NCBI GenBank assembly: GCA_038040505.1
Contig: JBBPID010000014.1
Location: 8,588 to 72,587, forward strand
DNA length: 64,000 nucleotides
Source: Acidobacteriota bacterium
GTDB taxonomy: Bacteria; Acidobacteriota; Blastocatellia; Pyrinomonadales; Pyrinomonadaceae
Reading direction: 5' to 3'
Shown: positions 10,995 to 32,882 of the stretch, piece by piece
How the letters are laid out: the number at the start of each line of letters is the position of its first letter
How positions within the stretch are numbered: position 1 is the first letter of the stretch
The notes under the pieces: generated by a model
Seen by the model: the letters and a program-made list of their open reading frames with translations, nothing else
Told to the model about the DNA's origin: nothing
Databases searched by the model: none
Position numbers and translations under genes: made by a program

Positions 10995-12248
10995 CTACTT
11001 ACCCTCAATCGCCAGCGATCTCAAAGTCGTTTCATCCTTAATCAGAATCCGCTTACCAAGCACCAGTGGATGGGCCCAGGTCGGACTGGCGGCGACGGTG
11101 TACTGCGCCACCGGTGAATAAGTTTTAGCGCCCGCCGGCTGGACGATGAGGTTGCCATCGTTGGTTAAGAACAGCAGGGCCTTGCCGGCGAGATTCAGGA
11201 TCGCCGCGTTCTCTCCCATGCGGCCGGGACTTTGCCAAACGGTCTTTCCAGTGTCCGCATCGATCGCAAAGAACTGACCCTTCTGTCTCGCCGTCATGCC
11301 AAACAGAACATTTCCTTCCAGCACCGGCGTGTTCAAATACAACTCGGCGTCTTTGTTGACCCACACCTGCTGCGGAACGATCTCCGCGCCCTGTTTCACC
11401 AAACGAAATGCTGACAGACCCTGCTCTTCCCGGGAGATGATCACCATGTCTTTGTAAGGGACGACCGTGTTCGAGTTCTCGTCGTATTGGGTTTTGGACG
11501 GGAGCTTCCACAGGATCTTTCCGGTCGCAAAGTCGACGCCCACCACGTCCTTTTGCATGAAGGTAACAATCTGTTTCGTACCGGCCGCGGTGATGATGAT
11601 CGGCGAAGCGTAAGCCGGGCCATCAGCATTGTTCGACCATTTGGTCACGCCGGTTTGAGCGTCGAAAGCAGTGAGCGCGCCTTTGTCGTGGCCGCCAACA
11701 TGCGCGATCACTAGTCCGCTATCAACGACCGGAGACATTGCGGTGCCAAAGAGTGGCGAAGTCTTCGGGTAGTCCTTCGAGAATTCACGCCGCCATTTAA
11801 GCTTGCCAGTGGCCGCATCGTGAGCTGAAAGAACGCCGGAGATACCAAAGGTGTAAACCATACCATTGGCAACCACTGGTGTAGCCTTCGGACCTTTGCC
11901 GTGGGCGACGGCAGCGGGATGCATTTCATAGGCAATTGGCTGGGCCCCCGATCTCCAAATCTCTTTTCCGCTGGTGGCATCGAGGCACATCAATAGTTCC
12001 TCTTCACCCTGGCGCGCGAAGACATAAATGCGGCCGTTCGACTCGACCGGCGAAGCGTGACCGACGCCCACCGTTACTTTCCATTGTTCAGTCAGAGTCT
12101 TGGGCCAGACTTCAGGCACAAAAGCGTCCTTCACCATCCCGTCGCGGTTGGGACCGCGCCACTGCGGCCAGTCGCCCGCCACTGAAAGCAGCGAAGCCAG
12201 GAGTGTGATCACAAGAAGGGTGCACTTGAATGACGTTCGCAATCGCAT
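10995..12248 (-). CDS. Secreted PQQ-like beta-propeller repeat protein, paralog 4
   Basis: 417 aa. Signal peptide ends LLSVAG, then DWPQWRGPNRDG. Blades: LMCLDATSGKEIWR, LSAHDAATGKLKWR, LTAFDAQTGVTKWS, VVGVDFATGKILWK, FFAIDADTGKTVWQ. AGGAGA RBS; the start lies 18 nt after the TonB-receptor stop. Confidence 0.85.
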   Translation of the reverse strand: MRLRTSFKCTLLVITLLASLLSVAGDWPQWRGPNRDGMVKDAFVPEVWPKTLTEQWKVTVGVGHASPVESNGRIYVFARQGEEELLMCLDATSGKEIWRSGAQPIAYEMHPAAVAHGKGPKATPVVANGMVYTFGISGVLSAHDAATGKLKWRREFSKDYPKTSPLFGTAMSPVVDSGLVIAHVGGHDKGALTAFDAQTGVTKWSNNADGPAYASPIIITAAGTKQIVTFMQKDVVGVDFATGKILWKLPSKTQYDENSNTVVPYKDMVIISREEQGLSAFRLVKQGAEIVPQQVWVNKDAELYLNTPVLEGNVLFGMTARQKGQFFAIDADTGKTVWQSPGRMGENAAILNLAGKALLFLTNDGNLIVQPAGAKTYSPVAQYTVAASPTWAHPLVLGKRILIKDETTLRSLAIEGK

Positions 12249-15200: not shown

Positions 15201-15461
15201 AAATAATTGCACCACTACTGAGAGACGGTAGATACCGGGAGCCAACCCGGCTATCGTGTATTCCCCCTCAGAGGTGCTAAGTGCGGTTCGCATCTCGCCG
15301 GTAGCGACGTTAGTAATCGTCACTTGTGCTCCCGGTATGGCCGCTTGATTGGGATCATAGACAGTTCCGCGCACCGATCCGCGATACGTTTGAGCTAACG
15401 CCGTGCTGGCACCTAGAAAGATCAGCGTTGAGATAAAAGCGAGCGAAAGGATGGACTTCAA
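12267..15461 (-). CDS. TonB-dependent outer-membrane receptor with N-terminal carboxypeptidase-regulatory-like domain
   Basis: 1064 aa, TTG start preceded by GAGGAG, with a signal peptide. N-terminal domain [29 protein letters not shown]...[15 protein letters not shown], then a long beta-rich barrel. The C-terminus QFGVKLLF ends in an aromatic residue. Confidence 0.9.
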
Positions 15462-16507: not shown

Positions 16508-17737
16508 ATGAAAAACCTACGCGTGATTTTGACCGGCAGCGCGATTCTTATTCTTTCATTTGCCTTTCAGGCATTCGGCCAGACCGGCGGCGAATGGCCG
16601 CAGTGGCGCGGCGCAAATCGTGACGGCATCTCGAAAGAGACGGGATTGTTAAAGCAATGGCCCACGGGTGGTCCACCGCTGGTTTGGAAAGCTGCGGGCG
16701 CGGGCGGTGGCTATTCCTCGTTTTCGATTTCCAAAGGCCGCTTGTACACGATGGGATTACGAGGCGACCGCGAATACGTCATCGCGTTTGACCTGGCCAA
16801 CGGGAAAGAAGTCTGGGCGACGGCGCACGGCGGCGCCTTTCGCAATGACCGCGGCGATGGACCACGCGGAACGCCTACCATTGATGGCGAGAAGCTATAC
16901 GCGCTGGGCGGCAAAGGCGACCTTTCGTCCCTGGATCTGAAAACCGGAAAAGTCATCTGGTCAGTGAACCTGCTGTCGAAATTTGGCGGCTCGAATATCC
17001 GGTGGGGCATCAGTGAGTCGCCGCTGGTGCTGGGAGATAAGGTGATCGTGAACGCCGGCGGACCGGGCGCTTCGATCATGGCCCTCAAGAAAACGGATGG
17101 TTCGTTGATCTGGAAGAGTCAGAGCGACGAGGCCGGATATTCTTCCGGCATACCGCTGGAGATTGGCGGCACGACGCAGGTCGTTTTCTTTACGGCTACG
17201 CGGGGGTTGGGTCTTGATTCTCGTGACGGCCGCTTGTTGTGGGAATACACGCGTCCATCCAACGATGTCGCCAACATTGCGACGCCGGTGGTACGCGGCA
17301 ACCGCGTGTGGATCTCTTCGGACTATGGCACCGGCGGCGGCGTGGTTGAGATCAAAGCCGACGGTAAGGCCCAGGAAGTTTATTTCACCAAGGAGATGCG
17401 CAACCATCACGCGACTTCAATTCTGATCGGCGATCATCTCTATGGTTTCTCAAGCAGCATTCTCACGGCCATGCGCTTTGATACCGGCGAGGTGGCCTGG
17501 CGTGATCGCAGTGTGGGCAAGGGCTCGCTCACTTACGCCGACGGCAACCTTTATGCTTTCAGTGAAAACGGTGTGGTGGGTCTGGTCGAGGCGAACCCAA
17601 CGGCTTATAAAGAGAAGGGCAGGTTCCAAATCCAGCAGGGGTCGCTACCCACCTGGACGCATCCGGTAGTTGCGGGCGGCCGGCTTTACCTGCGCGACCA
17701 GGACACGATTTATGCGTTTGATGTGAAAGCTAAGTAG
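16508..17737 (+). CDS. Secreted PQQ-like beta-propeller repeat protein, paralog 5
   Basis: 409 aa. Signal peptide precedes GGEWPQWRGANRDG. Blades: VIAFDLANGKEVWA, LSSLDLKTGKVIWS, IMALKKTDGSLIWK, GLGLDSRDGRLLWE, LTAMRFDTGEVAWR. GGAGA RBS. Confidence 0.85.
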   Translation: MKNLRVILTGSAILILSFAFQAFGQTGGEWPQWRGANRDGISKETGLLKQWPTGGPPLVWKAAGAGGGYSSFSISKGRLYTMGLRGDREYVIAFDLANGKEVWATAHGGAFRNDRGDGPRGTPTIDGEKLYALGGKGDLSSLDLKTGKVIWSVNLLSKFGGSNIRWGISESPLVLGDKVIVNAGGPGASIMALKKTDGSLIWKSQSDEAGYSSGIPLEIGGTTQVVFFTATRGLGLDSRDGRLLWEYTRPSNDVANIATPVVRGNRVWISSDYGTGGGVVEIKADGKAQEVYFTKEMRNHHATSILIGDHLYGFSSSILTAMRFDTGEVAWRDRSVGKGSLTYADGNLYAFSENGVVGLVEANPTAYKEKGRFQIQQGSLPTWTHPVVAGGRLYLRDQDTIYAFDVKAK

Positions 17738-19674: not shown

Positions 19675-20934
19675 TCACTTCTTCCCGATGCAATAAAGAT
19701 TCGTCGCCGTCCGGATGAAAATCTGACCCTCAGAGATAGCCGGCGAGCTCAGGCAGTAATCGTTCAAAGGGTTTTCAGCCAGCACTTCGAATTTTGGTCC
19801 AGCCTTAATCACGGTTGTCAGACCTTCCTCGTTCGTTATGTAGAGCTTGTCATCAGCCAGCACCAAAGATCCGCTGTAAGTACCCGGCTTCAGCCGCTGC
19901 TGCCCATAAATCTCGGCCCCGGTTTTGGCGTCGAGGCACCACATAATCCCGCGGTCGTTGACGATGTAGAAATACTTTCCGTCAGTGACCGGCGTGGGCA
20001 CGTCCGGGCCATTCACCGTCGACCAGAGCAGATGCGAAGTGGTGATATCGCCGCGGCCGCCGGCGCGCAACGCCAGCAGTGGTTTAACTCGCGTGGGCGC
20101 ATAGATGACGTCGTTGAAAATTATGGGCGACGCCACAATCCGATAATTAGGATTGTTGTCCGGATTGAGCCCGTTTGCGCGCCAGAGTTCTTTTCCGGTG
20201 GCCGGATCATGGCCGGTAACACAGTCGCCTCCGGTGACCACAATCTCGGTCGTCTTGCCGTATCGCAGCAAAGCGGGGGTGGTGTATGAATCGGGCGACT
20301 CGCGAATCGCGTTCGTCGGGCGCTCGACTTTCCAGAGAGTTTTTCCGGTCTGCTTGTTGATTCGCATTACGTAAGAAGCATCATCCGTTTTCATTCCGTG
20401 AAGCACCTGCACGTAAAGCGAGTCTTCGAAAAGCAAAGGCGACGAGGCATAACCCCAGTTCAGACCGAACTGCCCGTAATCTTTCTGCACGTCACGCGAC
20501 CAGAGTTCTTTGCCTGCGAAATCAAATCCCTTAAGGATGCCGGTACCCGTCATCACGTAGACAGTCTTGCCGTCGGTAACCGGCGAGGGCGAAGACATGT
20601 TCTGCTTGCGCATTTTGACGTCGCCGCCGCTGAGCAGTTTCTTCCAGAGCATTTTTCCGCTGGCTCGATCCACACACCACAGGTAGATGTTGGCGTCAGT
20701 CTCAGCTACGTTTAGAAAGATCCGGTCGCGCCAGATGATGGGGGTTGAGCCGCTCCAGGCCGGCATTGCGAGTTTCCAGGCGACGTTCTCTTCCGTGGTC
20801 CATTTCGAAGGAAGATTCCTCTCGCTGCTGACCCCGTTAAGAGCAGGGCCCCGCCACTGCGGCCAGTTTTCGGCGCGGGCAACGTTGATCGAGAGGATGA
20901 TCACCGCCAAAATCTGTATGCTGCGTACTCTCAT
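19675..20934 (-). CDS. Secreted PQQ-like beta-propeller repeat protein, paralog 6
   Basis: Start moved to ATG 20934 ([21 protein letters not shown] then [13 protein letters not shown]), which follows a GAGGAGG RBS. The longer ORF start at 20985 runs into repeat C2. Collinear with paralogs 1 and 2. Confidence 0.85.
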
Positions 20935-20974
20935 ATCTTGCCTCCTCATTGAAGGTTTGTTCACCCGGTACCCT

Positions 20975-21096
20975 CTCATTAGCACCGAGCTTCAGCTCGG
21001 TGAGCTAGTGCCGCGAAAGTTTCGGAAACCGTTTAAACGGTTTCAGTCGACGATGAGAGCGCGTACCCCCTGGCTGAAGCCAGGGGTTAATGAGAG
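20975..21096. repeat. MITE-like palindromic element, family C copy 2
   Basis: Ends ctctcattagcaccgagcttcagctcggtga and ccccctggctgaagccaggggttaatgagag, with the central ggaaaccgtttaaacggtttc. Confidence 0.85.
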
Positions 21097-21176: not shown

Positions 21177-22430
21177 TCAACTCAAGTCCACGGCCATGAT
21201 CGTTTGACGATCACGCAGATAGAGTTTTGTGCCAATCAACGTCGGCACCGTCCAGGCCAGGTTCTTCAACAGACTAACCTTTGAAATGACTTTCAAACCC
21301 GCCGGCGACACTGTGGCCAGCGCCAGGTTTCCATCTTCATCAAGGATGATTAGCTTTCCGTCCGCGTAAAGAAAATTAGTCTTGGGAAAGCTGCGATCCT
21401 GAAACGCGATTTCACCCGTCTTGACATTCACCGCCGCGAAAAACGCCGGCCCGAAGTCTCCGCTCGAGGCGTACACATGATCGCCGATGCGAATCGCCGT
21501 GCTGTGGTGAACGCGTAGACGATTGTTGAACCAAACTTCGGTCACAGTTGTCTTGCCGCCCGCTTGAGTGAGTTTCAGCACGCGGCTGCCGCCACTGTAG
21601 GCCGAAGAAAGAAAGAGGAGATTGTCAGGTCCCCAGACCGGCGTGCTGATATTCAACCCCCAGTCGGTGACGTGCGGATGACTCCAGAGCAATTCGCCAT
21701 TGTTTGGATCAACTCCCGCAATCACTTTCCCCATAAACGCGACCATCTGCTCCTGCCCATCGACATTAATAATGATGAGAGAAGCGGGAGAAAGATCCAG
21801 GGTCTGTTTCTTCCATACCACCTTGCCGTCTTTTTGATTCAACGCGACCAGGGTCTGTCCCTCACCGCCCAGAGTCAGAATGATCGTGTTCTTATAAGCC
21901 AGAGGGCTGCATGAATAGCCGCGGCCCATCTTGCGGCCTCCCAGATCTTTGTAGAGATCGACAGTCCATACGACCTTTCCCGTTTTCTTATCCAGGGCGT
22001 GGAGTTTTCCGACCGCGCCAACCGTGTAGAGCAGATCGCCGACCAGAAGCGGAGTCGAATGCGGGCCAAGTCCTTCTTCATAGTTTATGCCCGCGGTCGG
22101 CGCGTCGTACTTGAATTCCCAGGTGGTTTTTCCGGTGTCGGCAGCGAGGGCGACAACAACCTCCTGCTCACCCTGGCTGTACATGGTATAGAGCGTGGTC
22201 CCCGATGCCACAATCGCTGAGTGCCCCTGGCCAAGCGGCCGGCTCCAGAGCTGTCGCGGTCCTTTCTCAGGCCAGGAAGCTGCGAGACCTTTCGACGTCG
22301 AAATGAAATTGCGAGTTGGGCCGCCCCATTGCAGCCAGTCGGTCTGGGCCGGTGAGTCAGTCGAAAAAATCAGCAGCAGGAAAACCGATAATAGGCCCAG
22401 GTATTGAGTTCGTTTGAGGGGAAGTGCCAT
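21177..22430 (-). CDS. Secreted PQQ-like beta-propeller repeat protein, paralog 7
   Basis: Start set at ATG 22430 ([22 protein letters not shown]...[15 protein letters not shown]), after a GAGGAGG RBS. Blades: [56 protein letters not shown]. Confidence 0.85.
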
Positions 22431-22499
22431 GGTGCCTCCTCGTCTAATCGCCAATGCGGCCCGGCCGCCTGATGGAAAAGGGGAGTTAGCTTGAGTTCC

Positions 22500-22650
22500 G
22501 TCAGGAGCCAGATGTTTATAGAGCCGCGCTAAGAATAAAGGAAAGCTCCTTTAAGAGCGAAATTGTTTGAATCAAAGATCCAGTGACGCCCCTGGAAGGG
22601 GCTGGTATTTCTTAACGCGGACTGATCTATAAACATCTGGCCCCTCCCGG
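22500..22650. repeat. About 150-nt MITE-like element with terminal inverted repeats, family D
   Basis: ggagccagatgtttatagagccgcgctaagaa ... ttcttaacgcggactgatctataaacatctggcccc are terminal inverted repeats read directly. Confidence 0.8.
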
Positions 22651-22678
22651 GGCCAATTCACACTGATCTCAGGGCGCC

Positions 22679-25600
22679 CTATTCCGCTCTCAACGCAGGC
22701 AACAAAGGAGATCTCAGCGCCGCCCAGGTAGCCACCAGCGACGCGGTCAGGCCCGAGATTATTACGGCCAACAACAGGAAACCCATAGAAAGATTCGGTA
22801 GCGAGCCGCCGCGCGCGGAAAATACGGGCGCGATTGCCAGCAGCGCGCAGACGGCGCCGGTTGCCAAACCGGCGAAAAGCAGCAGAGCATTTTCCGCGAC
22901 CACCATCAGCGTGAAGTGCCCTGAGTTATAACCCACCGCGCGCAACAGCGCCAGCTCTTTTCGTCGTTCGAAGACATTGCGCAATAACACTGCCGCCATG
23001 CCCAGCGTCCCTAACACAAGCCCCAAACCACCGAGCATTTGAAAAGTTGAGAGATACGTGTTTTCGACCCGATGAAAGTTAGCCAGCCGCTCACCCGTGG
23101 TCACCGCGTCAAAGCCGTAGTCTGACAGCCGCTCCTCCAGCGTCGCGGTCACCGCCGCCACGTTGGGCTGAGGCGCATCGATCAGGAAAAAGCGATAACC
23201 CTGCTGGTCGGGAAAAAGTCGCAGGAAATTCTTTTCCGACATCAACAGGTCGCTCTGAAAAACGCTGTCGGCAAGCGCGGCCATTACTCGCAAACGAACC
23301 GGGCCTTCGTTCCGATTCAGGACGAACTCGTCCCCCACCTGGAGGTGGAGGACATAGGCGATCGAGTTGGCGTCAGCGATGATTGGCACGACGCCGTTTT
23401 CCAGATCACGATTCAGCAACAGCCAGGGATTATCTTTCTCATCACTGGCGCCGGCCAGCGAAGTTTGAAAGCCGAAGCGATTGCTCTTAATAAAATCGTC
23501 GGTGGCGCCCAGGATGCGAGGATTGCGCGGCTGATAGAGATTCAAACAACTGGCATCATCGCCGGGCCGCAGACGGAAGCGCGTGAACGTGGCGTTGCCC
23601 AGCGACTCTGCGTCGTTTGGCAGGTTCAGTGCCTCGAGGCCGGCCGGTGTGTTCGGATCCTGTACCAGCGGCAGAAGCGACTCAGCCAGCAGCGAAAATC
23701 CGCCACTACCTGATTTAAGATCCTGGCTCAAGCTTCGATCGTCACGTCTGAAAGCATCGACGGCCACGATGATGAAGGTTGAAAACGCGATTAGCGCAAT
23801 GCAGAGAACGCTGCGACCAGGCCGGTGCGTGGCATTTCTGAATCCCAGTCGAGCTACTGACGGCCAGCCAGTTCCCTGAATCGATTTTCGGCGCGGACTG
23901 CTCAGCCATGCGGACTGGAAACAAAGCATCGCCACCAGCAGCAAGGCGCCGCCTCCGAAAAAGCCGCCGGTTTGGCCGATCAGATGAAAGGAAGCCGCGA
24001 GCAGAACGAGAACCGCAGCCAGGGTGAGTCCACCAGCGATCAAGAGACGCGGAGACACGGAGACACGGCGACGCGAGGGAGTTCCCGTGTCCCCGCGTCT
24101 CTGTGTCCCCGTGTCCAAAGTTGCCGTTCCCATCAAAAGGCTACGCGTTGACGCTCTGCGCAGTCGTCGCAACGTCAGCAGGATGCACACCAAAGCCGCC
24201 ACGACACCTCCAGCTCCGCCCAGCAAGAGCGAAAGCGGCGAAACGTGCAGTCTCAATAACGTGGTGCCGACGGCATCCACCCACCACGTTCGCAAACCCA
24301 TCAAAATCAGATAACCGTAAGCTACGGCGCCAATCAGGCCGAGAAGACTTCCGGCTACCGATAAAACTAAACCCTCAGTAAGAAAAAGGGCGCGAATCTT
24401 CCGCGCCGAGAAGCCGACGGCTTGCAGGGTCCCGATCTCGCGCAGACGCTGTTCGATTCCGAGTTTGAAAAAGAGCGCGGCCAGCATTAACGCTGAAACG
24501 ACCAGAAAGAAACTGAAGTAAAGAAAGTACTCTCCAAAGTCAGTCGCGCCGCGCGACGCTTCCAGACCCTGCTGGTGCACCGCAGCGATATTGAAACCTC
24601 TGGCCGATGGTTCGAGCGCGGCTCGCAATCCTTGTTGATACTTGTCGAGAGTCTGATCGAGTGAGGCTCCGGTCGGATTCAAAAGCCGAATCGAAGTCGA
24701 TCTGCCAAAGCGGGACTGCCAAAGCTTCTGACCGGCTTCGAGCGGAATGAACGCCTTGGGCGTCGTTCGATACTGATTCCAGTAATCCTCATCCTGCTTG
24801 CGAATTCGGTCCAGAGCTACCGGGAAAGGCGGGTCCCAATCGGAAAGACTGGGCGAATCGCTGATGCCTGGATAAACCGGCACGAGGTCGCGATCAGCCG
24901 CCGGGCCAGACAGGGGAACGATCGCATCCAGATGAAATTGAGCAGTCCTGGTCTCGAGGCGGCCGTCGGTCTGCCACAGGTAATATTCAAGCGTGACCGG
25001 ATCGCCGCGGCGAATTCCCAGATCACGAGCCGCCCATTCGTTGAGGATTATCGGATTAGTTGAGCTGGCAGTTTGTGGCGCAACACCTCCACCATCCAGC
25101 TCTCGCAAAGCCTGAAATGCCTGATCGTCAAGAGCCGTAACCAGCGAATACGGTATTGAATGGCCGCCGGCGTTGATGCCGTTGGCGAGATACGACAGCA
25201 CCGGCGCTGTGCGCATCTTTAAGCTTTCGGCAACGGCCCGGGCCGTTTCCTCGAGCGGTGCGTCGACCAGGGTGCTGGTTCTTTCGAGAGAGAGACTCTC
25301 CTGTGACGGCAATGCCCGCAGACGAATTCCATAGTCATCGAGCGTCGCCGTCTCTTTGAGGATTTTCTTGAGTGCGCCTTCTGAGGAAACTGAGTTGCGA
25401 CGCTCAGGAAGTGCCGAGATCAGAATCGTGTTGACCTTGTTGTCCTGCTCCAACTCTTTTTGCAGCAACTTCAGTGAAACGAAAACTGCATGCACCGGAG
25501 TTTGCTGCGGCTGGACCGAAAACTCTCCGAGCGCATCAGCCGTGACGACTTCACTCATCGTCAAGCGCAGCGTGCTGCCAAGATCCTCCCGGCGTCCGTG

Positions 25601-26113
25601 CAGAGACTCAACCGGAATGGCCGAAGGCTTTTCGATTCTCAGGATGAGTGAGTCGCCCACGCGGCTTTCCAATTCGCGCGAGAGGCTGTCGCTGACAAAT
25701 ATTTCCCGACTCTGCGGGGCGGCCTTACCGTTTCGCCCGTGGAAATTCCAAAACCTTTCGTCAACGCCATAAACCCGCACGGCCCCGGCGCGCCGGCCGC
25801 TGGCGGCGTGACTGACATTTCCCTCGAGAGCAATCAGCGGACAGGTTGAGGCGAAGCCAGTGGAGGCAAACTGCTGGTTGTTTTGTACTTCCCCGGCAAG
25901 TTGTTCACGAAAGAACTCGCCCGACGAGATAACGTGTTCAGTGTTTCCGAGCCGTTGCAGGAAAAGATCTCGGAGACTCGCACGCACTGAGTCACCGACC
26001 AGCAAGGCCCCGGAGAGGACAGCTACCGCGGTCCCGACTCCCAGGACTACCGCCAGATTTGTGCGCCAATAATAGGTAAGGTTGCGTTTGACGAGCTGTG
26101 TAGTTCGCATCAC
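22679..26113 (-). CDS. ABC transporter permease, tandem FtsX/MacB-type
   Basis: 1144 aa. Two FtsX-type helix bundles, each preceded by a large extracytoplasmic domain. The start overlaps the upstream ATPase stop (ATGA at 26110-26113). Confidence 0.9.
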   Translation of the reverse strand: MMRTTQLVKRNLTYYWRTNLAVVLGVGTAVAVLSGALLVGDSVRASLRDLFLQRLGNTEHVISSGEFFREQLAGEVQNNQQFASTGFASTCPLIALEGNVSHAASGRRAGAVRVYGVDERFWNFHGRNGKAAPQSREIFVSDSLSRELESRVGDSLILRIEKPSAIPVESLHGRREDLGSTLRLTMSEVVTADALGEFSVQPQQTPVHAVFVSLKLLQKELEQDNKVNTILISALPERRNSVSSEGALKKILKETATLDDYGIRLRALPSQESLSLERTSTLVDAPLEETARAVAESLKMRTAPVLSYLANGINAGGHSIPYSLVTALDDQAFQALRELDGGGVAPQTASSTNPIILNEWAARDLGIRRGDPVTLEYYLWQTDGRLETRTAQFHLDAIVPLSGPAADRDLVPVYPGISDSPSLSDWDPPFPVALDRIRKQDEDYWNQYRTTPKAFIPLEAGQKLWQSRFGRSTSIRLLNPTGASLDQTLDKYQQGLRAALEPSARGFNIAAVHQQGLEASRGATDFGEYFLYFSFFLVVSALMLAALFFKLGIEQRLREIGTLQAVGFSARKIRALFLTEGLVLSVAGSLLGLIGAVAYGYLILMGLRTWWVDAVGTTLLRLHVSPLSLLLGGAGGVVAALVCILLTLRRLRRASTRSLLMGTATLDTGTQRRGDTGTPSRRRVSVSPRLLIAGGLTLAAVLVLLAASFHLIGQTGGFFGGGALLLVAMLCFQSAWLSSPRRKSIQGTGWPSVARLGFRNATHRPGRSVLCIALIAFSTFIIVAVDAFRRDDRSLSQDLKSGSGGFSLLAESLLPLVQDPNTPAGLEALNLPNDAESLGNATFTRFRLRPGDDASCLNLYQPRNPRILGATDDFIKSNRFGFQTSLAGASDEKDNPWLLLNRDLENGVVPIIADANSIAYVLHLQVGDEFVLNRNEGPVRLRVMAALADSVFQSDLLMSEKNFLRLFPDQQGYRFFLIDAPQPNVAAVTATLEERLSDYGFDAVTTGERLANFHRVENTYLSTFQMLGGLGLVLGTLGMAAVLLRNVFERRKELALLRAVGYNSGHFTLMVVAENALLLFAGLATGAVCALLAIAPVFSARGGSLPNLSMGFLLLAVIISGLTASLVATWAALRSPLLPALRAE
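24043..24116. repeat. Octamer array plus complementary octamer array inside the permease CDS
   Basis: agagacgc ggagacac ggagacac ggcgacgc - gagggagttccc - gtgtcccc gcgtctct gtgtcccc gtgtcc. Translated on the minus strand it reads LDTGTQRRGDTGTPSRRRVSVSP, and the frame is kept open. Confidence 0.85.
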
Positions 26114-26775
26114 ACCTCGTGGAGCTGCTGCTCTCTCAATTGAAACCGGCGGGAAAACCGCGAGGCCAGTTCCGTGTTATGCGTTACTACGATCAGGATT
26201 GTTTCCTGGCGCTGGTGCAGCTCAAGAAGAAGGGAAGCGACTGTGTCCGCCGATTTTTGATCGAGATTTCCGGTGGGTTCGTCACACAACAACAGTTGCG
26301 GCTTCATGATGAGGGCCCGCGCCAGTGCCACGCGCTGCTTTTCCCCGCCCGACAGTTCAGCCGGACGATGATCAAGCCGATCGCGCAGGCCAACCCGTTC
26401 GAGTAAAGCCTGAGCTCGTTCACCGGCATTCCCGTCGACATCCGCGACCAGGGTTGGAGTCAGCACATTCTCGATCACCGAACATTGCGGCAAGAGGCAG
26501 TGGTCCTGAAAGACGAAGCCAATCTCCTTGTTTCTGAACGCTGCCAGCTCACGAGCATTGAGCTGAAAGGGGTTCTGCTTGCCCAGGGTTACGCTGCCGC
26601 TGGTTGGGGGTTCGAGTGCGCCGATGATGTACAGCAGCGTGCTTTTGCCACTGCCGGAGGGACCCATGATCGAAACTGCTTCGCCTTGCTCGAGGGAAAG
26701 GGAAACGTCGGAAAGGATCTCGATTGTTCCGCGCGGCGCGGGATATTGCTTTGAGATGTTTTCGACGTTGAGCAT
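26110..26775 (-). CDS. ABC transporter ATP-binding protein (LolD/MacB type)
   Basis: 221 aa. Walker [10 protein letters not shown], signature LSGGEKQRV, Walker [13 protein letters not shown]. Confidence 0.92.
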
Positions 26776-26840
26776 TCGATATCTTTATCGTTTTGCTGAT
26801 GCCTTGCGACAGATCGCTTGTGAATGCAGATAATCCGCCT

Positions 26841-26990
26841 TAATTACGGCTATGCCGCTTTGATGCGCGTCAAGTCTCTGACTGCCGGCAAAGCCATTTA
26901 CCATTAATAGGGTCTAAGACCCTATCCTATTCCGCGAACGTTTTCGGCAAGTCACAGACTTGCCGCGCATCAGAGTGGCATAGCCATTAC
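26841..26990. repeat. 150-nt long-hairpin MITE-like element, family E
   Basis: taattacggctatgccgctttgatgcgcgtcaagtctctgact pairs with agtcacagacttgccgcgcatcagagtggcatagccattac. The centre holds the palindrome tagggtctaagacccta. Confidence 0.8.
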
Positions 26991-27019
26991 AAAGCGCCGT
27001 CGCTTGCTCAGCGGGCTCG

Positions 27020-28306
27020 TTAATTCATCACACTCTCGTAAGCTTCCAACGCGCGATCGGCCATGTGGGCGGCGCTGTAATGTTCACGCACGCCGCGCGC
27101 TCCGGCGCGCCCTAACGCTTCCGCCAGAGATCTGTCTTGAAAGATTTGTAGCAGACCCTGGGCCAGGCTCTCAGCGTCATCCGGTTCGACCAGGAGGCCG
27201 CCGGAAGTCTTTTCCACAATTTCGGTAAACGCTCCGCGCCGCGGTTGGACCACCGGTACTCCGCAAGCCATCGCCTCCAGCAGAGACACTCCCTTGGGCT
27301 CGTCATAGGTGGCGGGCACTGAGAACACGTCCACGCCTCTCAGAAACTTTATCTTCTCAACTCGATCTAAAACTCCTCGGTAGGTGAACTCGGCGCCGAG
27401 CCCCGCATCGTCTAAACGCTTCTTGATTTCGCCGAGATAAGACTTACAGTCAGCGGCCATGTAACCCGCGACTTCCAGACGCGCGTCAGTCACGCCCAGA
27501 TCTTTGCGCAAAATACGGTAGGCTTCAGCCAACAAATCAAGTCCTTTTTCCGGAGCGATGCGGGCGAGATAACCCACCACAAAAGGCTTGCTGCCGTTTG
27601 GTTCTTTCTCGTCAAAGCCGGCGACGTTTATTCCCAAAGGCACTACGCTGATTTTGTCACGGGGAATCCCCAGATAGCCCGGCGTGAATTCTGCGTAGAA
27701 TTCGCTGACCGGCAGAAAGGCGTCGACGTGCTGAATGTGACTCCGAATCAGGTCCAGAGCCTGGGTCCGGTAAGGTTGCTGAAGGCCATCAAGGAAGAGG
27801 TCTTCTCCCTGCAGCGTACAGCAAATGGGACGATTCAATTCGCGTTTGAGCGGACCGGCCAGTCCCAGTAATAGCGAATACGGCAGGCTGATTACGTCCG
27901 GAAGCGGTTGGCTCTTCAGCCATTCGATGAGCTTGTGTATTTCTTTGCGTTGGAATCCGTCCTCACCCTTGAGCACTGAGACAGTCATCTCGCCCAGCAT
28001 CTTCGGGTTAGTCGAAATCGAACCGCGCGAGGCGAAGCTGAGGACCGCTTTGGAGTCCCAGAGGCGATCCAACCAGGCCGGCGTCCTGCGAAAAAAGGGA
28101 ACGTATTGCTGAAGGTAGGCGCTGATGCCGCCAAGCACGACGTGGTTCTGACTTACGTTCGGTTCGTCTGTATGCGTAGGGGTGTAGACCGGCAGGAGCA
28201 ACACTTCGTGTCCGCGCGCAATCAGCTCGGTGGCCAAAGCGTTGTCACGGAGACAACTGCCACAATACATCCTTCCGGCGCCGCCGGTGAGATAAAGGAT
28301 TCTCAC
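27020..28306 (-). CDS. Glycosyltransferase, GT4-type (GT-B fold)
   Basis: 428 aa. N-terminus MRILYLTGGAGRMYCGSC. The C-terminal donor-binding region VFSVPATYDEPKGVSLLEAMACGVPVV is typical of GT4/GT1 enzymes. It begins 9 nt after the upstream stop. Confidence 0.85.
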   Translation of the reverse strand: MRILYLTGGAGRMYCGSCLRDNALATELIARGHEVLLLPVYTPTHTDEPNVSQNHVVLGGISAYLQQYVPFFRRTPAWLDRLWDSKAVLSFASRGSISTNPKMLGEMTVSVLKGEDGFQRKEIHKLIEWLKSQPLPDVISLPYSLLLGLAGPLKRELNRPICCTLQGEDLFLDGLQQPYRTQALDLIRSHIQHVDAFLPVSEFYAEFTPGYLGIPRDKISVVPLGINVAGFDEKEPNGSKPFVVGYLARIAPEKGLDLLAEAYRILRKDLGVTDARLEVAGYMAADCKSYLGEIKKRLDDAGLGAEFTYRGVLDRVEKIKFLRGVDVFSVPATYDEPKGVSLLEAMACGVPVVQPRRGAFTEIVEKTSGGLLVEPDDAESLAQGLLQIFQDRSLAEALGRAGARGVREHYSAAHMADRALEAYESVMN

Positions 28307-28315
28307 AGAATGACC

Positions 28316-29740
28316 TCAGAGCGAAGCGGCGCGCTGAAAAGCCCGGCGGGCGTACAAGTGTTCAAAGAGATTGCCTTCATGCGGTTGATCCCAGCTTACC
28401 TGGTTCGTCGGCACGGCCCCGATGTTAAGACGATCGACGTGTGGCGATACGATCAGTTTCTGAATTAGTTTCGGATCGTTGGTAATGGCCGTCACCACCA
28501 GGCTTGGTCCCAGCTTTTCGGGGATCTCATCCTGATCGACTTTCACCACGCTGGCGAAAGGGAAGAGAAACTCGCGATTGGCCAGCGGATGCGACGGCTG
28601 ATCGCACCGAATTATCGTCGGGAGCAGATAGGAGCAATTTTCCCAATTGACGAGTCGCTCGGGCCGGGCTGAGGCGCTGACGTCCGTTGCGCCGGTTTCG
28701 TTCAAGCCCTGATCGATCATTGCTGAGATGCGGGCGGCCACGCCGGCGTCTGCAAACGGAGCCAGTCCCGCCGCTTCGTCTTCAGCATCTCGGGGGACGA
28801 TTTGGGCCAGCCGTTCCGCCAGCGCGTGGCTTATCTCCTCAGCATGGCGGGGCACCCAGACTCCCGACGCGTTGATGCAGGAGCGGCCGCCGTTCTCGGC
28901 GATCGACGCCACCATTACATCCAGATATTGCTCCCAGTTGTCGACGCAGTCTTCGCCGAGGATGACCTTGCTGTAACCGGGCCCATGAACTTCGATACGC
29001 GCATCGTTCGACCACCCGCCCGTGGTGGAAGCGTCGCCGAAAATGATTCCGCGTCCGCAGGTGCGCAGAACTTCTCCTGCTCCCGCATGGTCAGCGGGGT
29101 AAAAACTAAAGGCCTCAGGAGGCGCTCCCGCTTTAATCAAAGCCTGGATGATTCGGTAGGGTGTCCACGGTTCAGCGCTGCCCGGCTTGAGCACGAGGGG
29201 AATCTTGAGCGGAAATGCCGGAATCCAGAGTGAGTGGACACCCGGCGAGTTGTTCGGCAATACGACGCCAAGCGATTGTCCGCGGGGAAAGAAACTCAGG
29301 GCATGGCCTTCGAAGTCACCGAACCCACTGTCGAGAATCTTCCAATCAAGATTTCTGGTAAGACCGTCCAGGACGTTGGCCATCTCTGCCAGCATCATCC
29401 GGATTTTTTGCATGTTCCGGCGCACCAGAACATAAGGCAAGCCGGTGGTCGCGGACACCTGCTGAACATAATCTTCAGGCGTTTGCGTTTCGTCACCCAG
29501 CACCAGCGACCCATTCAGAAAATGATCCGCTGCCTGGCTGCACATCTCGACCAGGTCAGCAGTGGAGAATTTGTTCAGCAGCGCGTGGCTTGATCCCTGG
29601 TCGCGCAAGTCGCGACGGATTAGTCCGACGTTGGCCTGGCTGATCTCGACGAACGGTTCACGGGTGCGATGATGCGCCACCCGGGCGACGTCAAGACTCT
29701 GGTAGGGTTGGCCCCTGCGAAGTATGGGGATATGGAGCAT
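28316..29740 (-). CDS. Aldehyde dehydrogenase superfamily protein, LuxC-like acyl-CoA reductase candidate
   Basis: 474 aa. The putative catalytic Cys lies in ENGGRSCINASG, with R-x-C-x-x-A spacing. Other segments, GVVLPNNSPG...VLKPGSAEP and IEVHGPGYSKVILGEDCVD, align by eye with LuxC as I recall it. Confidence 0.75.
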   Translation of the reverse strand: MLHIPILRRGQPYQSLDVARVAHHRTREPFVEISQANVGLIRRDLRDQGSSHALLNKFSTADLVEMCSQAADHFLNGSLVLGDETQTPEDYVQQVSATTGLPYVLVRRNMQKIRMMLAEMANVLDGLTRNLDWKILDSGFGDFEGHALSFFPRGQSLGVVLPNNSPGVHSLWIPAFPLKIPLVLKPGSAEPWTPYRIIQALIKAGAPPEAFSFYPADHAGAGEVLRTCGRGIIFGDASTTGGWSNDARIEVHGPGYSKVILGEDCVDNWEQYLDVMVASIAENGGRSCINASGVWVPRHAEEISHALAERLAQIVPRDAEDEAAGLAPFADAGVAARISAMIDQGLNETGATDVSASARPERLVNWENCSYLLPTIIRCDQPSHPLANREFLFPFASVVKVDQDEIPEKLGPSLVVTAITNDPKLIQKLIVSPHVDRLNIGAVPTNQVSWDQPHEGNLFEHLYARRAFQRAASL

Positions 29741-29746
29741 AGGCTA

Positions 29747-29840
29747 GAATTGCGAATTGCGAATTTTGAATTGCGGATTTCCGAAAACCAACTCTGATAG
29801 TTTTTTCAATTCGCAATTCGAAATTCGAATTTCGAAATCC
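29747..29840. repeat. Heptamer array (GAATTGC)n followed by its complementary array (GCAATTC/GAAATTC)n
   Basis: gaattgc gaattgc gaatttt gaattgc ggatttcc ... tcaattc gcaattc gaaattc gaatttc gaaatcc. It fills the whole 104-nt gap between two co-directional genes. Confidence 0.9.
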
Positions 29841-29844
29841 CACA

Positions 29845-30933
29845 TCAGTACACTCCTTCGACCACAGTCGTGTTCAATTTTGAAAATGGCCTGACGTTGC
29901 GCACGCCGTCCCACGGATAAGGGTCGCAAGGCGGTTCGCGTTCCGCCTGATCGCGCTCCAGAAAGCGCGGCATAAAGAATTCTTTCGTCAAAGTCGTCAG
30001 ACGCACGCGGCCCGTGTCGCCATATCCCACCAGTGTTTCAGGATTGTCCGGGTCAACCACCTCAATCATTGCGCGCGGCAACGGCGGGTAATAGATGATT
30101 GCAAAGTTGTCTTCCGGCCGGCGCGGTTTGTGCACGGCCAGACCCATCAGCGTGTTGCCATAGGTCGCAGCGAAATAAGCTCCTTCCAACAGCTCTTCAA
30201 CCGCGAAGCGATGAAACTGCGGAGTCATCTCAGTCCCACCACAGAAGACGCCGGTGATACCCAGCTTCTTGAGCGAAACCTTTTCGCAGAGCGCCTCCAA
30301 AAGTTTTGGCGTCGTAAAAATGCAGCGAATGTTTTCGTGCGCGCGCAGTTGGGTGAGTCCCTGTTCGATGACGTGCTGCTTGTACTCTTCGGCCATTTTG
30401 GGCTGACCTTGTTTGATGAGTTTGATGACCCAACGCGGATCGAGATCCACCATAAAGCACATGCCGCCACGGAACTGGGCCAGGTGCTCCACCGCCAGGC
30501 GCAAACGACGCGGGCCGGTTGGCCCGAGGGACAACCAATCACCGCCTGGGGGAAAGAATTCGTCGGGCAGCGTGGCGCTGAAGGCTTCATAGTCCAGCCG
30601 GAAATCCTCGATGTTGATCCGAGATTTCGGCACGCCGGTGCTGCCACCGGTTTCAAAAGTGTAGACGGGCCGGCCGGCGTATCCACGCGGCACCCAACGG
30701 CGGACCGGGCCGCCGCGCAGCCACTCGTCTTCAAAAAAACCGAAGCGCGAGAGATCGTCGTAACTCTGAATTTCCTGCCGCGGATCCCAGGAAAGATTCT
30801 GCGCGTAATCCAACCAGAACGGGCAGCCGGTCGCGGGATCGAAATGCCATTGAATGACTTCGCGAACCCAGGCGTCCAACACTCCTCGCGATTGCGCGAT
30901 GTCGGTCTGAAGTTTAGTTTCGGGTGAAGCCAT
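29845..30933 (-). CDS. Adenylate-forming enzyme, PaaK/LuxE-like, lacking a C-terminal lid domain
   Basis: 362 aa. Motifs: FETGGSTGVPKS (phosphate-binding loop), VFCGGTEM, and GRVRLTTLTKEFFMPRFLERD, which resembles the PaaK motif GELVxTxLTKExxPxxRYRTxD. The protein ends about 40 aa after this motif. Confidence 0.75.
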   Translation of the reverse strand: MASPETKLQTDIAQSRGVLDAWVREVIQWHFDPATGCPFWLDYAQNLSWDPRQEIQSYDDLSRFGFFEDEWLRGGPVRRWVPRGYAGRPVYTFETGGSTGVPKSRINIEDFRLDYEAFSATLPDEFFPPGGDWLSLGPTGPRRLRLAVEHLAQFRGGMCFMVDLDPRWVIKLIKQGQPKMAEEYKQHVIEQGLTQLRAHENIRCIFTTPKLLEALCEKVSLKKLGITGVFCGGTEMTPQFHRFAVEELLEGAYFAATYGNTLMGLAVHKPRRPEDNFAIIYYPPLPRAMIEVVDPDNPETLVGYGDTGRVRLTTLTKEFFMPRFLERDQAEREPPCDPYPWDGVRNVRPFSKLNTTVVEGVY

Positions 30934-31023
30934 AATGTCGATTAGCGTCTCTTATCAGCCTAAAATACCAGACGAAGTTTTCAAAAGATAACCGCGAAGC
31001 GGGGTAATGTCTTGATTTGATAG

Positions 31024-31112
31024 CGGTGTTTTAGAGTACCGACTTTAGTCGGGCTTTGTGCTCACGGAGAAAAGAACCCAACTAAAGTTGGTACTCTGTA
31101 CGCCCGTGAAAT
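31024..31112. repeat. Family B copy 2 (inverted relative to copy 1)
   Basis: cggtgttttagagtaccgactttagtcgggctttgtgctcacggagaaaagaacccaactaaagttggtactctgtacgcccgtgaaat. Confidence 0.85.
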
Positions 31113-31135
31113 CTCTATGCTGTCCACCGACCGCT

Positions 31136-31543
31136 CTAAACAGAAAATACCGTCTCACTCTCAAGCGCGGCCCTCAGTGACGCTGGAATCTCAGCCGGCT
31201 TGCCATTCTGCACCACCACGATCGTCATGGTGCCTTCGATGGCCAGCTCTCCGTCGCCTTTAACGACCTGATAGTCGTAACGAATTGACGTGCGTCCGAG
31301 TTTCCCCACCGCCAGCCGCAGCCGGAACGGATCGTCCAGCGCCAGCACGCGCAGGAACTTGCATTCCAAATGCACGCGCGGGAAATCGTAACCCATGCTG
31401 CGATTCATCGGCCACTTAATGGCGCGCACAAGTTCGCTCTCAGCCTCTTCGACGATTTCGAAAATACGGGGAAAGTGTAAACGTCCGGCAGCGTCGGCAT
31501 CAGCCCAGCGCAGCCGCCGCTGTAGTTCGATGGAAGCAGGCAT
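31136..31543 (-). CDS. Acyl-CoA thioesterase, hotdog fold (4HBT/YbgC-like)
   Basis: 135 aa. The N-terminal signature LRWADADAAGRLHFPRIFEIVEEAESE is typical of YbgC/4HBT thioesterases. Confidence 0.8.
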   Translation of the reverse strand: MPASIELQRRLRWADADAAGRLHFPRIFEIVEEAESELVRAIKWPMNRSMGYDFPRVHLECKFLRVLALDDPFRLRLAVGKLGRTSIRYDYQVVKGDGELAIEGTMTIVVVQNGKPAEIPASLRAALESETVFSV

Positions 31544-31696: not shown

Positions 31697-32632
31697 ATGA
31701 CTGTCGAACTTTACGATTGTATTGTCATTGGCGCCGGACCCGCCGGCCTCTCGGCCTCGCTTTTTCTCGCACGTTATCGCCATCGCACTCTGACTTTTCA
31801 TCACAACAGTCCGCGCAACGAATACGCTCATGGCATTCACGGTTTTCTCGGACATCACGGAATTTCGCCGGCAGAGCTTTTGGCGCGCGGACGCGACGAA
31901 GTCACTCAGCACGGCGGGCTGATCATGGAAGCCTGCGTGACCAGCGTCGAGCAAGTTTCCAGAGATCGTTTTCGCGTCCTGGTCGACGACGAACATTCCG
32001 GTGAACGAACCTTCGAAGGATCTCGCTTACTGCTGGCAACCGGGTTACGCGACCTGACGCCGAACTGCCCGGGATTTCGCGAATTCTACGGCGTCAGCGT
32101 TCACCATTGTCCCGATTGCGATGGTTACGAATGCCGGGACAAATCTGTGGCTGTGTTGGGGGGCGGCCGCAAGACCGTAGGCTTTGCCCTGGGTCTGTTG
32201 ACGTGGACAGACAAGGTAACTCTGCTCACCGACGGTGATGCCGGCGATATCGGTGACGATGAGCGCGCAAAACTAGCGAGTTTCAGTATTCAAATCCGGG
32301 AGGAGAAAGTTATCGCCCTGGAAGGTGATGAAGAATCGAAACAACTGCAACGAGTTTGCTTCGCCGAAGGAGCAGCCCTCGAGTGCGAAGGACTCTTTTT
32401 CAATCTGGGTATCGAACCCGCGAGTAATCTACACGAGGCGCTGGGCTGCAAGCTGGATGCGGAGAGCGGCCTGGTCTGGGTGGATCCTGATCAGCAAACC
32501 AGCGTCGAGGGTGTATATGCCGCAGGCGACGTCACGCCAAATTCTCAACTGGCCATTGTCGCCGCTGCCGAAGGCGCCATGGCGGCGATTCACATTCACC
32601 AGTCGCTTATTCCCGTTGAGCGTAAGATTTGA
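31697..32632 (+). CDS. Thioredoxin-reductase-like NAD(P)/FAD-dependent oxidoreductase
   Basis: 311 aa. Motifs: YDCIVIGAGPAGLSASL, redox CxxC in VHHCPDCDGYE, AVLGGGRKTVG and YAAGDV. Confidence 0.85.
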   Translation: MTVELYDCIVIGAGPAGLSASLFLARYRHRTLTFHHNSPRNEYAHGIHGFLGHHGISPAELLARGRDEVTQHGGLIMEACVTSVEQVSRDRFRVLVDDEHSGERTFEGSRLLLATGLRDLTPNCPGFREFYGVSVHHCPDCDGYECRDKSVAVLGGGRKTVGFALGLLTWTDKVTLLTDGDAGDIGDDERAKLASFSIQIREEKVIALEGDEESKQLQRVCFAEGAALECEGLFFNLGIEPASNLHEALGCKLDAESGLVWVDPDQQTSVEGVYAAGDVTPNSQLAIVAAAEGAMAAIHIHQSLIPVERKI

Positions 32633-32679: not shown

Positions 32680-32862
32680 AGTCGGCACAAACAGGCCCGA
32701 AGGGCCGACATTCAATAGCCGCGACCGTTTCGCGGTTCGCGTGTTGATACGAAAGCGAGGCCCGAAGGGCCGACATGAGTTGCTAGTCATGCCGGTCCGT
32801 CGGACCTCCAATGCATTTACACTTCCCTGACCACGACCTTACGGTCGTGGCTATTTCCTGAC
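32680..32862. repeat. Cluster of short GC hairpins, family F
   Basis: aggcccgaagggccgaca occurs twice (32693-32710 and 32758-32775). Also present are aatagccgcgaccgtttcgcggt and its inverted relative ccacgaccttacggtcgtggctatt. Confidence 0.75.
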
Positions 32863-32882
32863 AGCCCTTCGCGCTTCCTCGC

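Follow-up and report, generated by a model that had tools for sequence, protein, structure and literature searches.

A block of genes on the minus strand of a 64,000-nt stretch of DNA from an Acidobacteriota bacterium (hereafter the window) includes a 362-aa adenylating enzyme and a 474-aa protein of the aldehyde dehydrogenase (ALDH) superfamily, which together probably constitute a two-component carboxylic-acid reductase of the EhpF/EhpG (GriC/GriD) type. The predicted enzyme would be independent of coenzyme A (CoA) and of carrier proteins and would function in a glycoside-export pathway. To our knowledge, carrier-free two-protein carboxylate reductases of this type have barely been studied and have been seen as uncommon enzymes that tailor aromatic antibiotics. 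An earlier note on this DNA, made from the letters alone, had likened the genes to the LuxD/LuxE/LuxC fatty-acid reductase.

The features of the block, from the highest coordinates downwards and with the spacers between the genes, are as follows.

31136-31543, minus strand: hotdog thioesterase of the 4HBT/YbgC type, 135 aa (Pfam 4HBT_2 42.6 bits, 4HBT 40.2 bits)
30934-31135, no strand: spacer between the thioesterase and EhpF-like genes, with a long hairpin (RNA fold -59.9 kcal/mol)
29845-30933, minus strand: lid-less ANL adenylating enzyme of the EhpF type, 362 aa (phmmer against the PDB)
29741-29844, no strand: spacer of 104 nt between the EhpF-like and ALDH genes, with an AT-rich hairpin (RNA fold -31.5 kcal/mol)
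28316-29740, minus strand: ALDH-superfamily partner of the EhpG type, 474 aa (Pfam Aldedh 57 bits)
27020-28306, minus strand: retaining glycosyltransferase of family GT4, Cys-x-x-Cys subtype, 428 aa (Pfam)
26776-27019, no strand: spacer of 244 nt between the GT4 and ATPase genes, with an imperfect inverted repeat (repeat search and RNA fold)
26110-26775, minus strand: ATPase of an ATP-binding cassette (ABC) transporter, LolD/MacB/YbbA type, 221 aa (Pfam ABC_tran 129.8 bits)
22679-26113, minus strand: permease with two FtsX domains, type VII/MacB-like, 1144 aa (Pfam FtsX 88.1 bits)
21177-22454, minus strand: secreted beta-propeller of the PQQ_2/BamB type with an N-terminal signal-like sequence, 425 aa (Pfam PQQ_2 100.4 bits)
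19675-20985, minus strand: second, tandem beta-propeller of the PQQ_2/BamB type, 436 aa (Pfam PQQ_2 108.3 bits; module membership from position only)

The hotdog, adenylating, ALDH-like and GT4 open reading frames (ORFs) were all found where the earlier note had placed them, with the motifs it had quoted (GGRSCINASG around C288, FETGGSTGVPKS and LTKEFFMPRFLERD). The glycosyltransferase that it had attached to the pair is a GT4 according to Pfam, and exactly 9 nt (28307-28315) separate the ALDH stop from the GT4 start, as it had measured. Its MacB-type exporter on the same strand is likewise recognisable in Pfam and NCBIfam as a LolD/MacB-like ATPase and an FtsX permease. A gap of 104 nt separates the EhpF-like gene from the ALDH gene, and the permease and ATPase genes overlap by 4 nt. 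Base composition is uniform along the window, the sequence of which originates from a permafrost metagenome and was found in no RNA sequencing run. Homologues of the block's proteins at 60-90% identity number in the hundreds to thousands and, given these numbers and a gene order that is kept across classes and phyla, the arrangement of four genes and an exporter is far beyond chance.

The sole significant match of the 362-aa protein in a phmmer search of all PDB sequences was EhpF (3hgu/3l2k, E 1.6e-44), with residues 21-362 aligned against residues 25-369. The protein is 34-39% identical to EhpF-like proteins of Streptomyces, an E. coli plasmid and haloarchaea, and 56.5% identical to that of Limnoglobus. 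It matches the Pfam AMP-binding model at 26.7 bits, below threshold; the C-terminal lid domain (AMP-binding_C_2) is not matched and PaaK models are not among its NCBIfam matches. A true PaaK-type ligase in Limnoglobus does carry AMP-binding_C_2. The C-terminus lies 37 residues after the ERD motif, close to the earlier estimate of about 40 aa. A reading of the protein as a truncated PaaK was ruled out, the protein being a member of a large natural lid-less family. Neither subunit is covered by a Pfam or NCBIfam model of its own, and the same is true of the genuine EhpF and EhpG.

The size of this family was assessed by an exhaustive search of 1.84 billion representatives, in which clusters were counted at 50% identity; 1,551 clusters were found at E<=1e-3 and 314 at E<=1e-30. 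The Acidobacteriota clade is present as one full-length representative (71% identity), the remaining full-length clades being at 30-45%. The family invariants are the P-loop E.GG..G.P, YG.T, ERD and a C-terminal GVY. The (E)GVY at the extreme C-terminus (29845-29856 in the window) is kept from the Pantoea EhpF to the Acidobacteriota despite an overall identity of about 30%, and, by analogy with the C-terminal loop of LuxE, docking of this free and conserved tail into the partner protein is conceivable. Two members are fusions, one with a class-III aminotransferase (P0217, 824 aa) and the other with a Zn-alcohol dehydrogenase (P0259, 725 aa). Class-III aminotransferases and Zn-alcohol dehydrogenases are aldehyde consumers. 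Together with the iron-containing alcohol dehydrogenase (Fe-ADH) neighbours described below, the fusions indirectly support the reductase reading, since all of these enzymes consume aldehydes. In another member (P0210, 687 aa) the N-terminus is extended by 270 aa that match nothing in Pfam. The outgroup representative P0144 yielded nothing in genome contigs and P0135 yielded one locus, L085.

Streptomyces homologues that are 35% identical to the 362-aa protein are named 'arylcarboxylate reductase' by NCBI. The EhpF-like genes of this name at L082:6989-8074 and on six other Streptomyces plasmids had no ALDH match in those records, and this sub-clade may pass its acyl-adenylate to a different acceptor. 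In L082, the only context examined, the gene lies directly upstream of a type I polyketide synthase (PKS), which was dropped as a mechanistic clue because it has its own loading A domain and acyl carrier protein (ACP).

The 474-aa protein aligned with EhpG of an ehp-type plasmid of E. coli at 142 bits over 418 aa, whereas the best classical ALDH in the PDB scored just 35.6 bits. Scores against other partners of EhpF-like proteins were 127 bits for Streptomyces sp. Mg1, 112 bits for Halalkalicoccus, 281 bits for L085 (metagenome-assembled genome, MAG, 'BMS3Bbin05'; full length, 32% identity) and 487 bits for Limnoglobus (48.5% identity). Pfam assigned it to Aldedh only, at 57 bits. A tblastn search (E<=1e-15) of 72,556 plasmids (7.3 Gb) returned 19 records and no classical ALDH; an EhpF-like gene was present within 3.5 kb in all 19 and was directly adjacent in 17. 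Because EhpG is so much closer than any classical ALDH and the plasmid homologues occur only beside EhpF-like genes, the protein is assigned on sequence to a distinct EhpG-type partner subfamily. A profile of six partners had classical ALDHs for all of its top 60 matches in the PDB. An AlphaFold2 model built from an alignment enlarged with Planctomycetota sequences (pLDDT 77.6, pTM 0.79) has the ALDH fold, and its top 50 Foldseek matches were again all classical ALDHs (TM 0.61-0.71, 14-18% identity). The protein thus shows no specific likeness to LuxC, and none of the solved structures represents its subfamily. An earlier model from a shallow alignment (pLDDT 59.6) was discarded as too poor.

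Residues invariant across the partners include N164 (oxyanion), C288 (nucleophile), G253-P254-G255, E390 and H454. C288, which lies in the GGRSCINASG segment singled out by the earlier note, aligns with the catalytic Cys of the classical ALDHs. The position of the general-base Glu (Glu268 in ELGGK) is occupied by H252 (VHGPGYSK versus ELGGKS), and all 34 sequences compared from the Acidobacteriota and Planctomycetota have His there. The classical Cys-Glu-Asn triad is therefore incomplete, Cys and Asn being kept and Glu being replaced by His. Reductive ALDH clades retain the Cys alone, the triad being otherwise lost, and in gamma-glutamyl-phosphate reductase a His in the place of the triad Glu activates the Cys (PMC12041015); GriD and EhpG are not mentioned in this 2025 review of the ALDH superfamily. 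Thus, the retention of Cys and Asn with replacement of Glu by His is taken as the signature of an activated-acyl reductase and not of a hydrolytic dehydrogenase.

Among the closest known systems is that of EhpF (3HGU, 3HGV, 3L2K), a lid-less ANL enzyme encoded in the Pantoea agglomerans cluster for the phenazine D-alanylgriseoluteic acid. Bera, in 2010, reportedly found that deletion of ehpF leads to accumulation of phenazine-1,6-dicarboxylate, and EhpF together with EhpG is said to have been proposed to form the 6-formyl compound via an adenylate. In annotated genomes ehpG stands immediately downstream of ehpF as an 'aldehyde dehydrogenase family protein'. The window pair and this system have lid-less ANL enzymes that are equally long and align from end to end, and they further share an adjacent downstream partner of the same ALDH subfamily, a catalytic Cys without the general-base Glu, and a proposed conversion of an acid via the acyl-AMP to the aldehyde. 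The two differ in that identity is about 29-34% for EhpF and 26% for EhpG, and in that the triad Glu position is His in the window protein and Gln in EhpG. In addition, EhpF and EhpG belong to a phenazine cluster, whereas the window pair is linked with a GT4, a MacB-type exporter and PQQ_2 propellers and, instead of occurring sporadically on plasmids, shows high conservation throughout entire phyla.

Other systems are comparable as well. In the grixazone pathway of Streptomyces griseus, GriC forms an acyl-AMP from 3-amino-4-hydroxybenzoate and GriD reduces it to the aldehyde, the only experimentally demonstrated case of an AMP-binding protein working with an ALDH-like reductase (PMC10179220, citing Suzuki 2007); substrate and pathway context differ from those of the window pair. 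Type I carboxylic acid reductases (A-T-R architecture) and alpha-aminoadipate reductase resemble it in ANL-type activation and in the net conversion of an acid to an aldehyde with ATP and NADPH. Unlike the type I enzymes, the window system consists of two polypeptides with an ALDH-fold reductase, and has neither a phosphopantetheine carrier nor a reductase domain of the short-chain dehydrogenase type, no PP-binding or NAD_binding_4 domain having been matched in any protein of the block. ProB/ProA similarly combines a separate activating enzyme with a reductase of the ALDH superfamily that has His instead of the triad Glu; there, however, activation is by phosphorylation and not adenylation, and subfamilies and substrate are different.

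The conservation of the gene order was examined in other Acidobacteriota. The EhpF-like query gave at least 590 loci among the GTDB species genomes, of which the best 80 were analysed, many of them cut by contig ends. These are from the Pyrinomonadaceae/Blastocatellia, Terriglobia, Bryobacterales and Vicinamibacteria, at 74-87% identity. When tblastn matches that kept both strand and order were counted, the EhpF-like gene was present in 80/80 loci, the ALDH gene in 68/80, the GT4 gene in 64/80, the ABC ATPase gene in 46/80, the permease gene in 36/80 and the thioesterase gene in 8/80. The order EhpF-like, ALDH, GT4, ABC ATPase, permease and PQQ-type propeller is kept across Acidobacteriota classes. 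Of the four-gene block, the EhpF-like, ALDH and GT4 genes are syntenic in relatives, whereas the thioesterase gene is adjacent in the eight loci only. Twenty loci have room for a PQQ_2 propeller after the permease, and at least 11 of them carry one there, with three more outside the start-coordinate filter, and the propeller at 21177-22454 is a probable sixth member of the module. In one Vicinamibacterales MAG an inserted sodium:solute symporter gene (L070:9329-11182) separates the EhpF-like gene from the ALDH gene. Upstream and inserted neighbours were rejected as a clue to the substrate, being variable and generic (Ser/Thr kinase with tetratricopeptide repeats, ECF sigma factor, peptidases, prolyl-tRNA synthetase, formamidase).

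Outside the Acidobacteriota, the EhpF-like gene and the partner ALDH gene are adjacent in Streptomyces, in the ehp phenazine cluster, in haloarchaea and in the hydrothermal MAG of L085. In Halalkalicoccus the EhpF-like gene has a sodium:solute symporter gene directly upstream (L083:5511-6950); this symporter and that of L070 hint at import of the acid in some lineages. The complete genome of Limnoglobus roseus PX52 (Planctomycetota; CP042425.1) has all components of the block in a cluster of about 20 kb, which comprises, in order, PQQ_2, PaaK-type ligase with lid domain, PQQ_2, PQQ_2, EhpF-like, partner ALDH, Fe-ADH, PQQ_2, a 140-aa ORF with no Pfam match, a major facilitator superfamily (MFS) transporter, Cys-x-x-Cys GT4, 135-aa hotdog, prenyltransferase-like protein, ABC ATPase and 1145-aa FtsX permease. 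All are on one strand, the exceptions being two further genes not named in this list, one a small SMR gene and the other for a metallophosphoesterase. The Limnoglobus GT4 is 43.6% and the ABC ATPase 60% identical to the window proteins, and the hotdog directly downstream of the GT4 is 31% identical to the window hotdog over the full length. The first propeller of the cluster has its best window match at 16508-17737 (37%, 258 bits) and not in the two transporter-adjacent propellers. Fimbriiglobus ruber and Urbifossiella limnaea have a common sub-cluster of PaaK-type ligase, PQQ_2, EhpF-like, ALDH and Fe-ADH, so that the Fe-ADH gene directly follows the pair in three genera of the Gemmataceae; PQQ_2 genes are interleaved with the pair in all three genomes. 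Fe-ADH, PaaK-type ligase and prenyltransferase-like genes were found neither in the window nor in the best 80 loci. An alcohol step, suspected earlier, is therefore backed by the Gemmataceae and has no counterpart in the Acidobacteriota clusters.

A degenerate DNA scan for the Cys-x-x-Cys motif of the GT4 gave at least 120 loci. Among the matches listed, the GT4 subtype occurs in the Acidobacteriota, the Planctomycetota (Gemmata, Limnoglobus, Phycisphaerales) and the Verrucomicrobiota (including Akkermansia), and the hotdog gene is directly downstream of the GT4 gene in about 12 of the 21 loci with enough flank from the Planctomycetota-Verrucomicrobiota-Chlamydiota (PVC) group, in which the reductase pair is usually not near the GT4 gene. 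ABC ATPase and permease genes follow the GT4-hotdog genes in the Gemmataceae. An apparent 738-aa GT4-hotdog fusion ORF in a Gemmataceae MAG (L125:981-3197) may be a frameshift or assembly artefact. On this gene content, the window holds the compact Acidobacteriota version of a system of two sub-modules, one consisting of the reductase pair with or without Fe-ADH and PaaK-type ligase, plus propellers, and the other of the GT4, the hotdog and the ABC exporter.

The GT4 matched Pfam Glycos_transf_1 (102 bits) and Glyco_transf_4 (53 bits) and no NCBIfam model at cut-off. Solved GT4 structures are matched by its C-terminal, donor-side domain only. The N-terminal, acceptor-side domain carries invariant C15 and C18 in MYCGSCLRDN and had no plasmid match. 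YTPTxTDExNV, CTLQGEDLFL and EPKGVSLLEAMACG are also conserved and the EX7E motif is intact. The divergent thioredoxin-reductase-like gene at 31697-32632 was weighed as a possible source of a partner for the Cys-x-x-Cys GT4 but dropped, since it is absent from all 80 related loci. The thioesterase scored 42.4 bits, below cut-off, against the YbgC/FadM subfamily. The NCBIfam matches of the ABC ATPase are similarly all below cut-off (LolD 253.6, YbbA 204.8, MacB 188 and DevA 167.7 bits). The permease has two FtsX stretches in one chain, large extracytoplasmic regions, weak ADOP, DevC and LolCE matches, and YtrF as its only PDB match (E 2.8e-4). No adaptor (membrane-fusion protein) or outer-membrane gene was seen near the ATPase and permease genes.

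Homology, conservation of the catalytic residues and linkage of the genes across phyla are shown by these results. From these components we infer a reductive direction of catalysis, a direct acyl transfer between the two proteins, reduction ahead of glycosylation, and export. The lid-less ANL enzyme would use ATP to convert a free carboxylic acid into an acyl-adenylate, the acyl group of which would be taken by C288 of the ALDH-like partner as a thioester. H252, in the place of the general-base Glu, may help activate the Cys, and no water-activating base would be present. Reduction of the C288 thioester by NAD(P)H would yield the aldehyde, which is probably converted to the alcohol, by the cluster-encoded Fe-ADH in the Gemmataceae and by an enzyme from elsewhere in the Acidobacteriota. 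The dedicated Cys-x-x-Cys GT4 would then add a sugar, and the MacB-type ABC transporter with the periplasmic PQQ_2 propellers would move the product into or across the envelope. The hotdog thioesterase, where present, may free the acid from a CoA or ACP thioester.

Several observations weigh against this proposal. Three of the Acidobacteriota loci (L054, L066 and L078) have the EhpF-like gene followed by the GT4 gene with no ALDH gene between them or within the locus. Since no alcohol dehydrogenase is encoded in the Acidobacteriota clusters, the hydroxyl acceptor for the GT4 is unexplained there. The H252 position is Q, R or Y in the EhpG, Streptomyces and haloarchaeal partners. The EhpF/EhpG reaction is itself a proposal from knockout accumulation and structure. 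GriC/GriD, as an AMP-binding and an ALDH-like protein that convert an acid to an aldehyde, is likened to the window pair by its described reaction and not by sequence, a scan with the Streptomyces 'arylcarboxylate reductase' query having returned no S. griseus locus. The Verrucomicrobiota have the GT4-hotdog pair without a nearby reductase pair, and the two sub-modules can therefore work apart.

The substrate may be an aromatic, a small polar or a fatty acid, and the 'fatty' of the earlier note is unproven. The enzymes may be of the EhpF/EhpG type and yet make a glycoside that is small, soluble and either aromatic or polar, such as a glucoside of the benzyl-alcohol type, and that is secreted or serves as a compatible metabolite; this we consider possible, though unlikely. 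An aromatic or small polar substrate is favoured by the characterised or annotated relatives, all of which act on aromatic acids (phenazine-1,6-dicarboxylate, 3-amino-4-hydroxybenzoate and, in Streptomyces, a cluster containing DAHP synthase and PabB), by the PaaK-type aryl-acid CoA ligase that the Gemmataceae clusters add, with an MFS transporter in Limnoglobus, by the membership of the hotdog in the 4-hydroxybenzoyl-CoA thioesterase superfamily, by the Gemmataceae Fe-ADH, the closest families of which, at scores below cut-off, act on small polar alcohols, and by the symporters beside the pair in the haloarchaeon and between its two genes in L070. However, these subfamily matches are all far below curated cut-offs, MacB-type transporters with huge periplasmic domains and propellers are more typical of envelope cargo, and 74-87% identity across Acidobacteriota classes looks like housekeeping and not secondary metabolism. 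The transporter type, the propellers and this level of conservation favour a lipid instead.

A lipid version of the pathway can be sketched by analogy with the heterocyst glycolipids. It would be an ancient envelope pathway common to the Acidobacteriota and Planctomycetota, and partly to the Verrucomicrobiota, in which a (hydroxy)acyl acid is converted to an alcohol and then to a lipid of the alkyl-glycoside type that is delivered to the outer envelope, the 1145-aa MacB-type transporter and the periplasmic 'empty' PQQ propellers inserting the glycolipid. The heterocyst pathway with DevBCA similarly proceeds from an acyl thioester to an alcohol, glycosylation and MacB-family export, the likeness being a functional analogy only. 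It differs in its PKS-based synthesis and its different reductase; the similarity of the window transporter to DevA/DevC is far below cut-off, with no gene for a membrane-fusion or outer-membrane partner in view. We put this pathway forward as a speculation that is doubtful as a whole; if true, the envelope glycolipid would belong to a new class, made by phyla that are among the most abundant in soil.

According to the reading with which the earlier note began, the thioesterase frees a fatty acid, a LuxE-like enzyme acylates itself and a LuxC-like reductase produces a fatty aldehyde that goes into a glycolipid or an ether lipid. The overall chemistry is that of the EhpF/EhpG-type proposal: LuxC is an ALDH-superfamily reductase that keeps only the Cys and LuxE is adenylate-forming (PMC12041015), so that LuxC/LuxE (7XC6) and the window pair alike combine an adenylate-forming subunit with an ALDH-superfamily reductase to give an aldehyde with the use of ATP and NADPH. 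EhpG itself is a marginal LuxC match (21 bits), and the exporter family includes lipid and glycolipid exporters, the LolD, DevA and DevC matches of the window proteins being below cut-off. The family assignments are nevertheless refuted. The 474-aa protein had no LuxC match at E<=1 in Pfam or NCBIfam (including NF052251), and LuxC was absent from the top 60 profile matches and, although 7XC6 is present in the fold library, from the top 50 fold matches. The 362-aa protein had no LuxE match at E<=1 in Pfam or NCBIfam and is a full-length homologue of EhpF. Its C336 is conserved at 90% in the Acidobacteriota, the rest of the family having Y, N, A, T or S at this position, and therefore the Cys relay of the LuxE type (PMC12041015) is no feature of the EhpF-like family. 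The thioesterase is a hotdog and not an alpha/beta hydrolase of the LuxD transferase type, and no luciferase was found among the ORFs examined (1-38 kb of the window). What survives of the Lux-like logic is the combination of an adenylating enzyme, an ALDH-superfamily thioester reductase, a glycosyltransferase and an exporter; with EhpF and EhpG as the nearest relatives, a true Lux-type system is very improbable.

It is hardly credible that an ordinary oxidative ALDH lies here by an unrelated ligase in a neighbourhood that is not one pathway, as the generic Aldedh assignment, the oxidative ALDHs among all the fold neighbours and the unrelated, variable upstream genes might suggest, given the missing general-base Glu, the restriction of the subfamily in plasmids to positions beside EhpF-like genes, the order and strand kept from the Acidobacteriota to the Planctomycetota, and the fusions of EhpF-like domains to aldehyde-consuming enzymes.

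Each spacer of the block has its own long hairpin, that of 22455-22678 being very stable (-96 kcal/mol). The gap before the exporter (26776-27019) is rich in repeats, as had been noticed, and its length is 244 nt and not 245; it contains an imperfect inverted repeat with 54-nt arms (26839-26892 and 26941-26994) and has an RNA minimum free energy of -114.4 kcal/mol (z -8.1 versus shuffled sequences). The spacer at 30934-31135 includes 59 nt that recur inverted about 28 kb away at 3240-3298 (91.5%, blastn), and this repeat is a dispersed palindromic element (REP/MITE-like). The spacer at 29741-29844 forms a hairpin of short GCAATTC/CGAATT repeats with self-matching inverted segments. No Rfam family scored above threshold in the spacers, 29741-29844 having a sub-threshold hairpin-type match only, and promoter and terminator scans showed no enrichment over shuffles. 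Directly downstream of the thioredoxin-reductase-like gene there are two sub-threshold matches to the Acido-Lenti-1 small RNA of Rfam, at 32693-32735 (minus strand, 32.4 bits) and 32831-32876 (plus strand, 27.8 bits), the gathering score being 37. The window contains seven paralogues of the PQQ_2/BamB type within its 64 kb (216-1577, 1857-3194, 3486-5051, 10995-12248, 16508-17737, 19675-20985 and 21177-22454). Genes for a HemN-like radical-SAM protein (7809-9122) and an FAD-dependent tryptophan-halogenase-like protein (9129-10478) lie 7 nt apart on the plus strand, near an outer-membrane barrel of the TonB type with CarboxypepD_reg (12267-15461).

No description appears to exist of the fixed link that, in two or three phyla, joins the reductase pair to a special GT4, a hotdog, a giant MacB-type exporter and PQQ_2 propellers. 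Carboxylate reductases without a need for phosphopantetheinylation would be attractive biocatalysts, and cultured organisms such as Limnoglobus roseus, Urbifossiella limnaea and Fimbriiglobus ruber are available for a search for the product. The pair belongs to a large enzyme family, one clade of which is near-universal and 74-87% conserved across the Acidobacteriota classes. The wiring of this clade, with the same parts list in the Gemmataceae, points to a conserved glycoconjugate in dominant soil bacteria.

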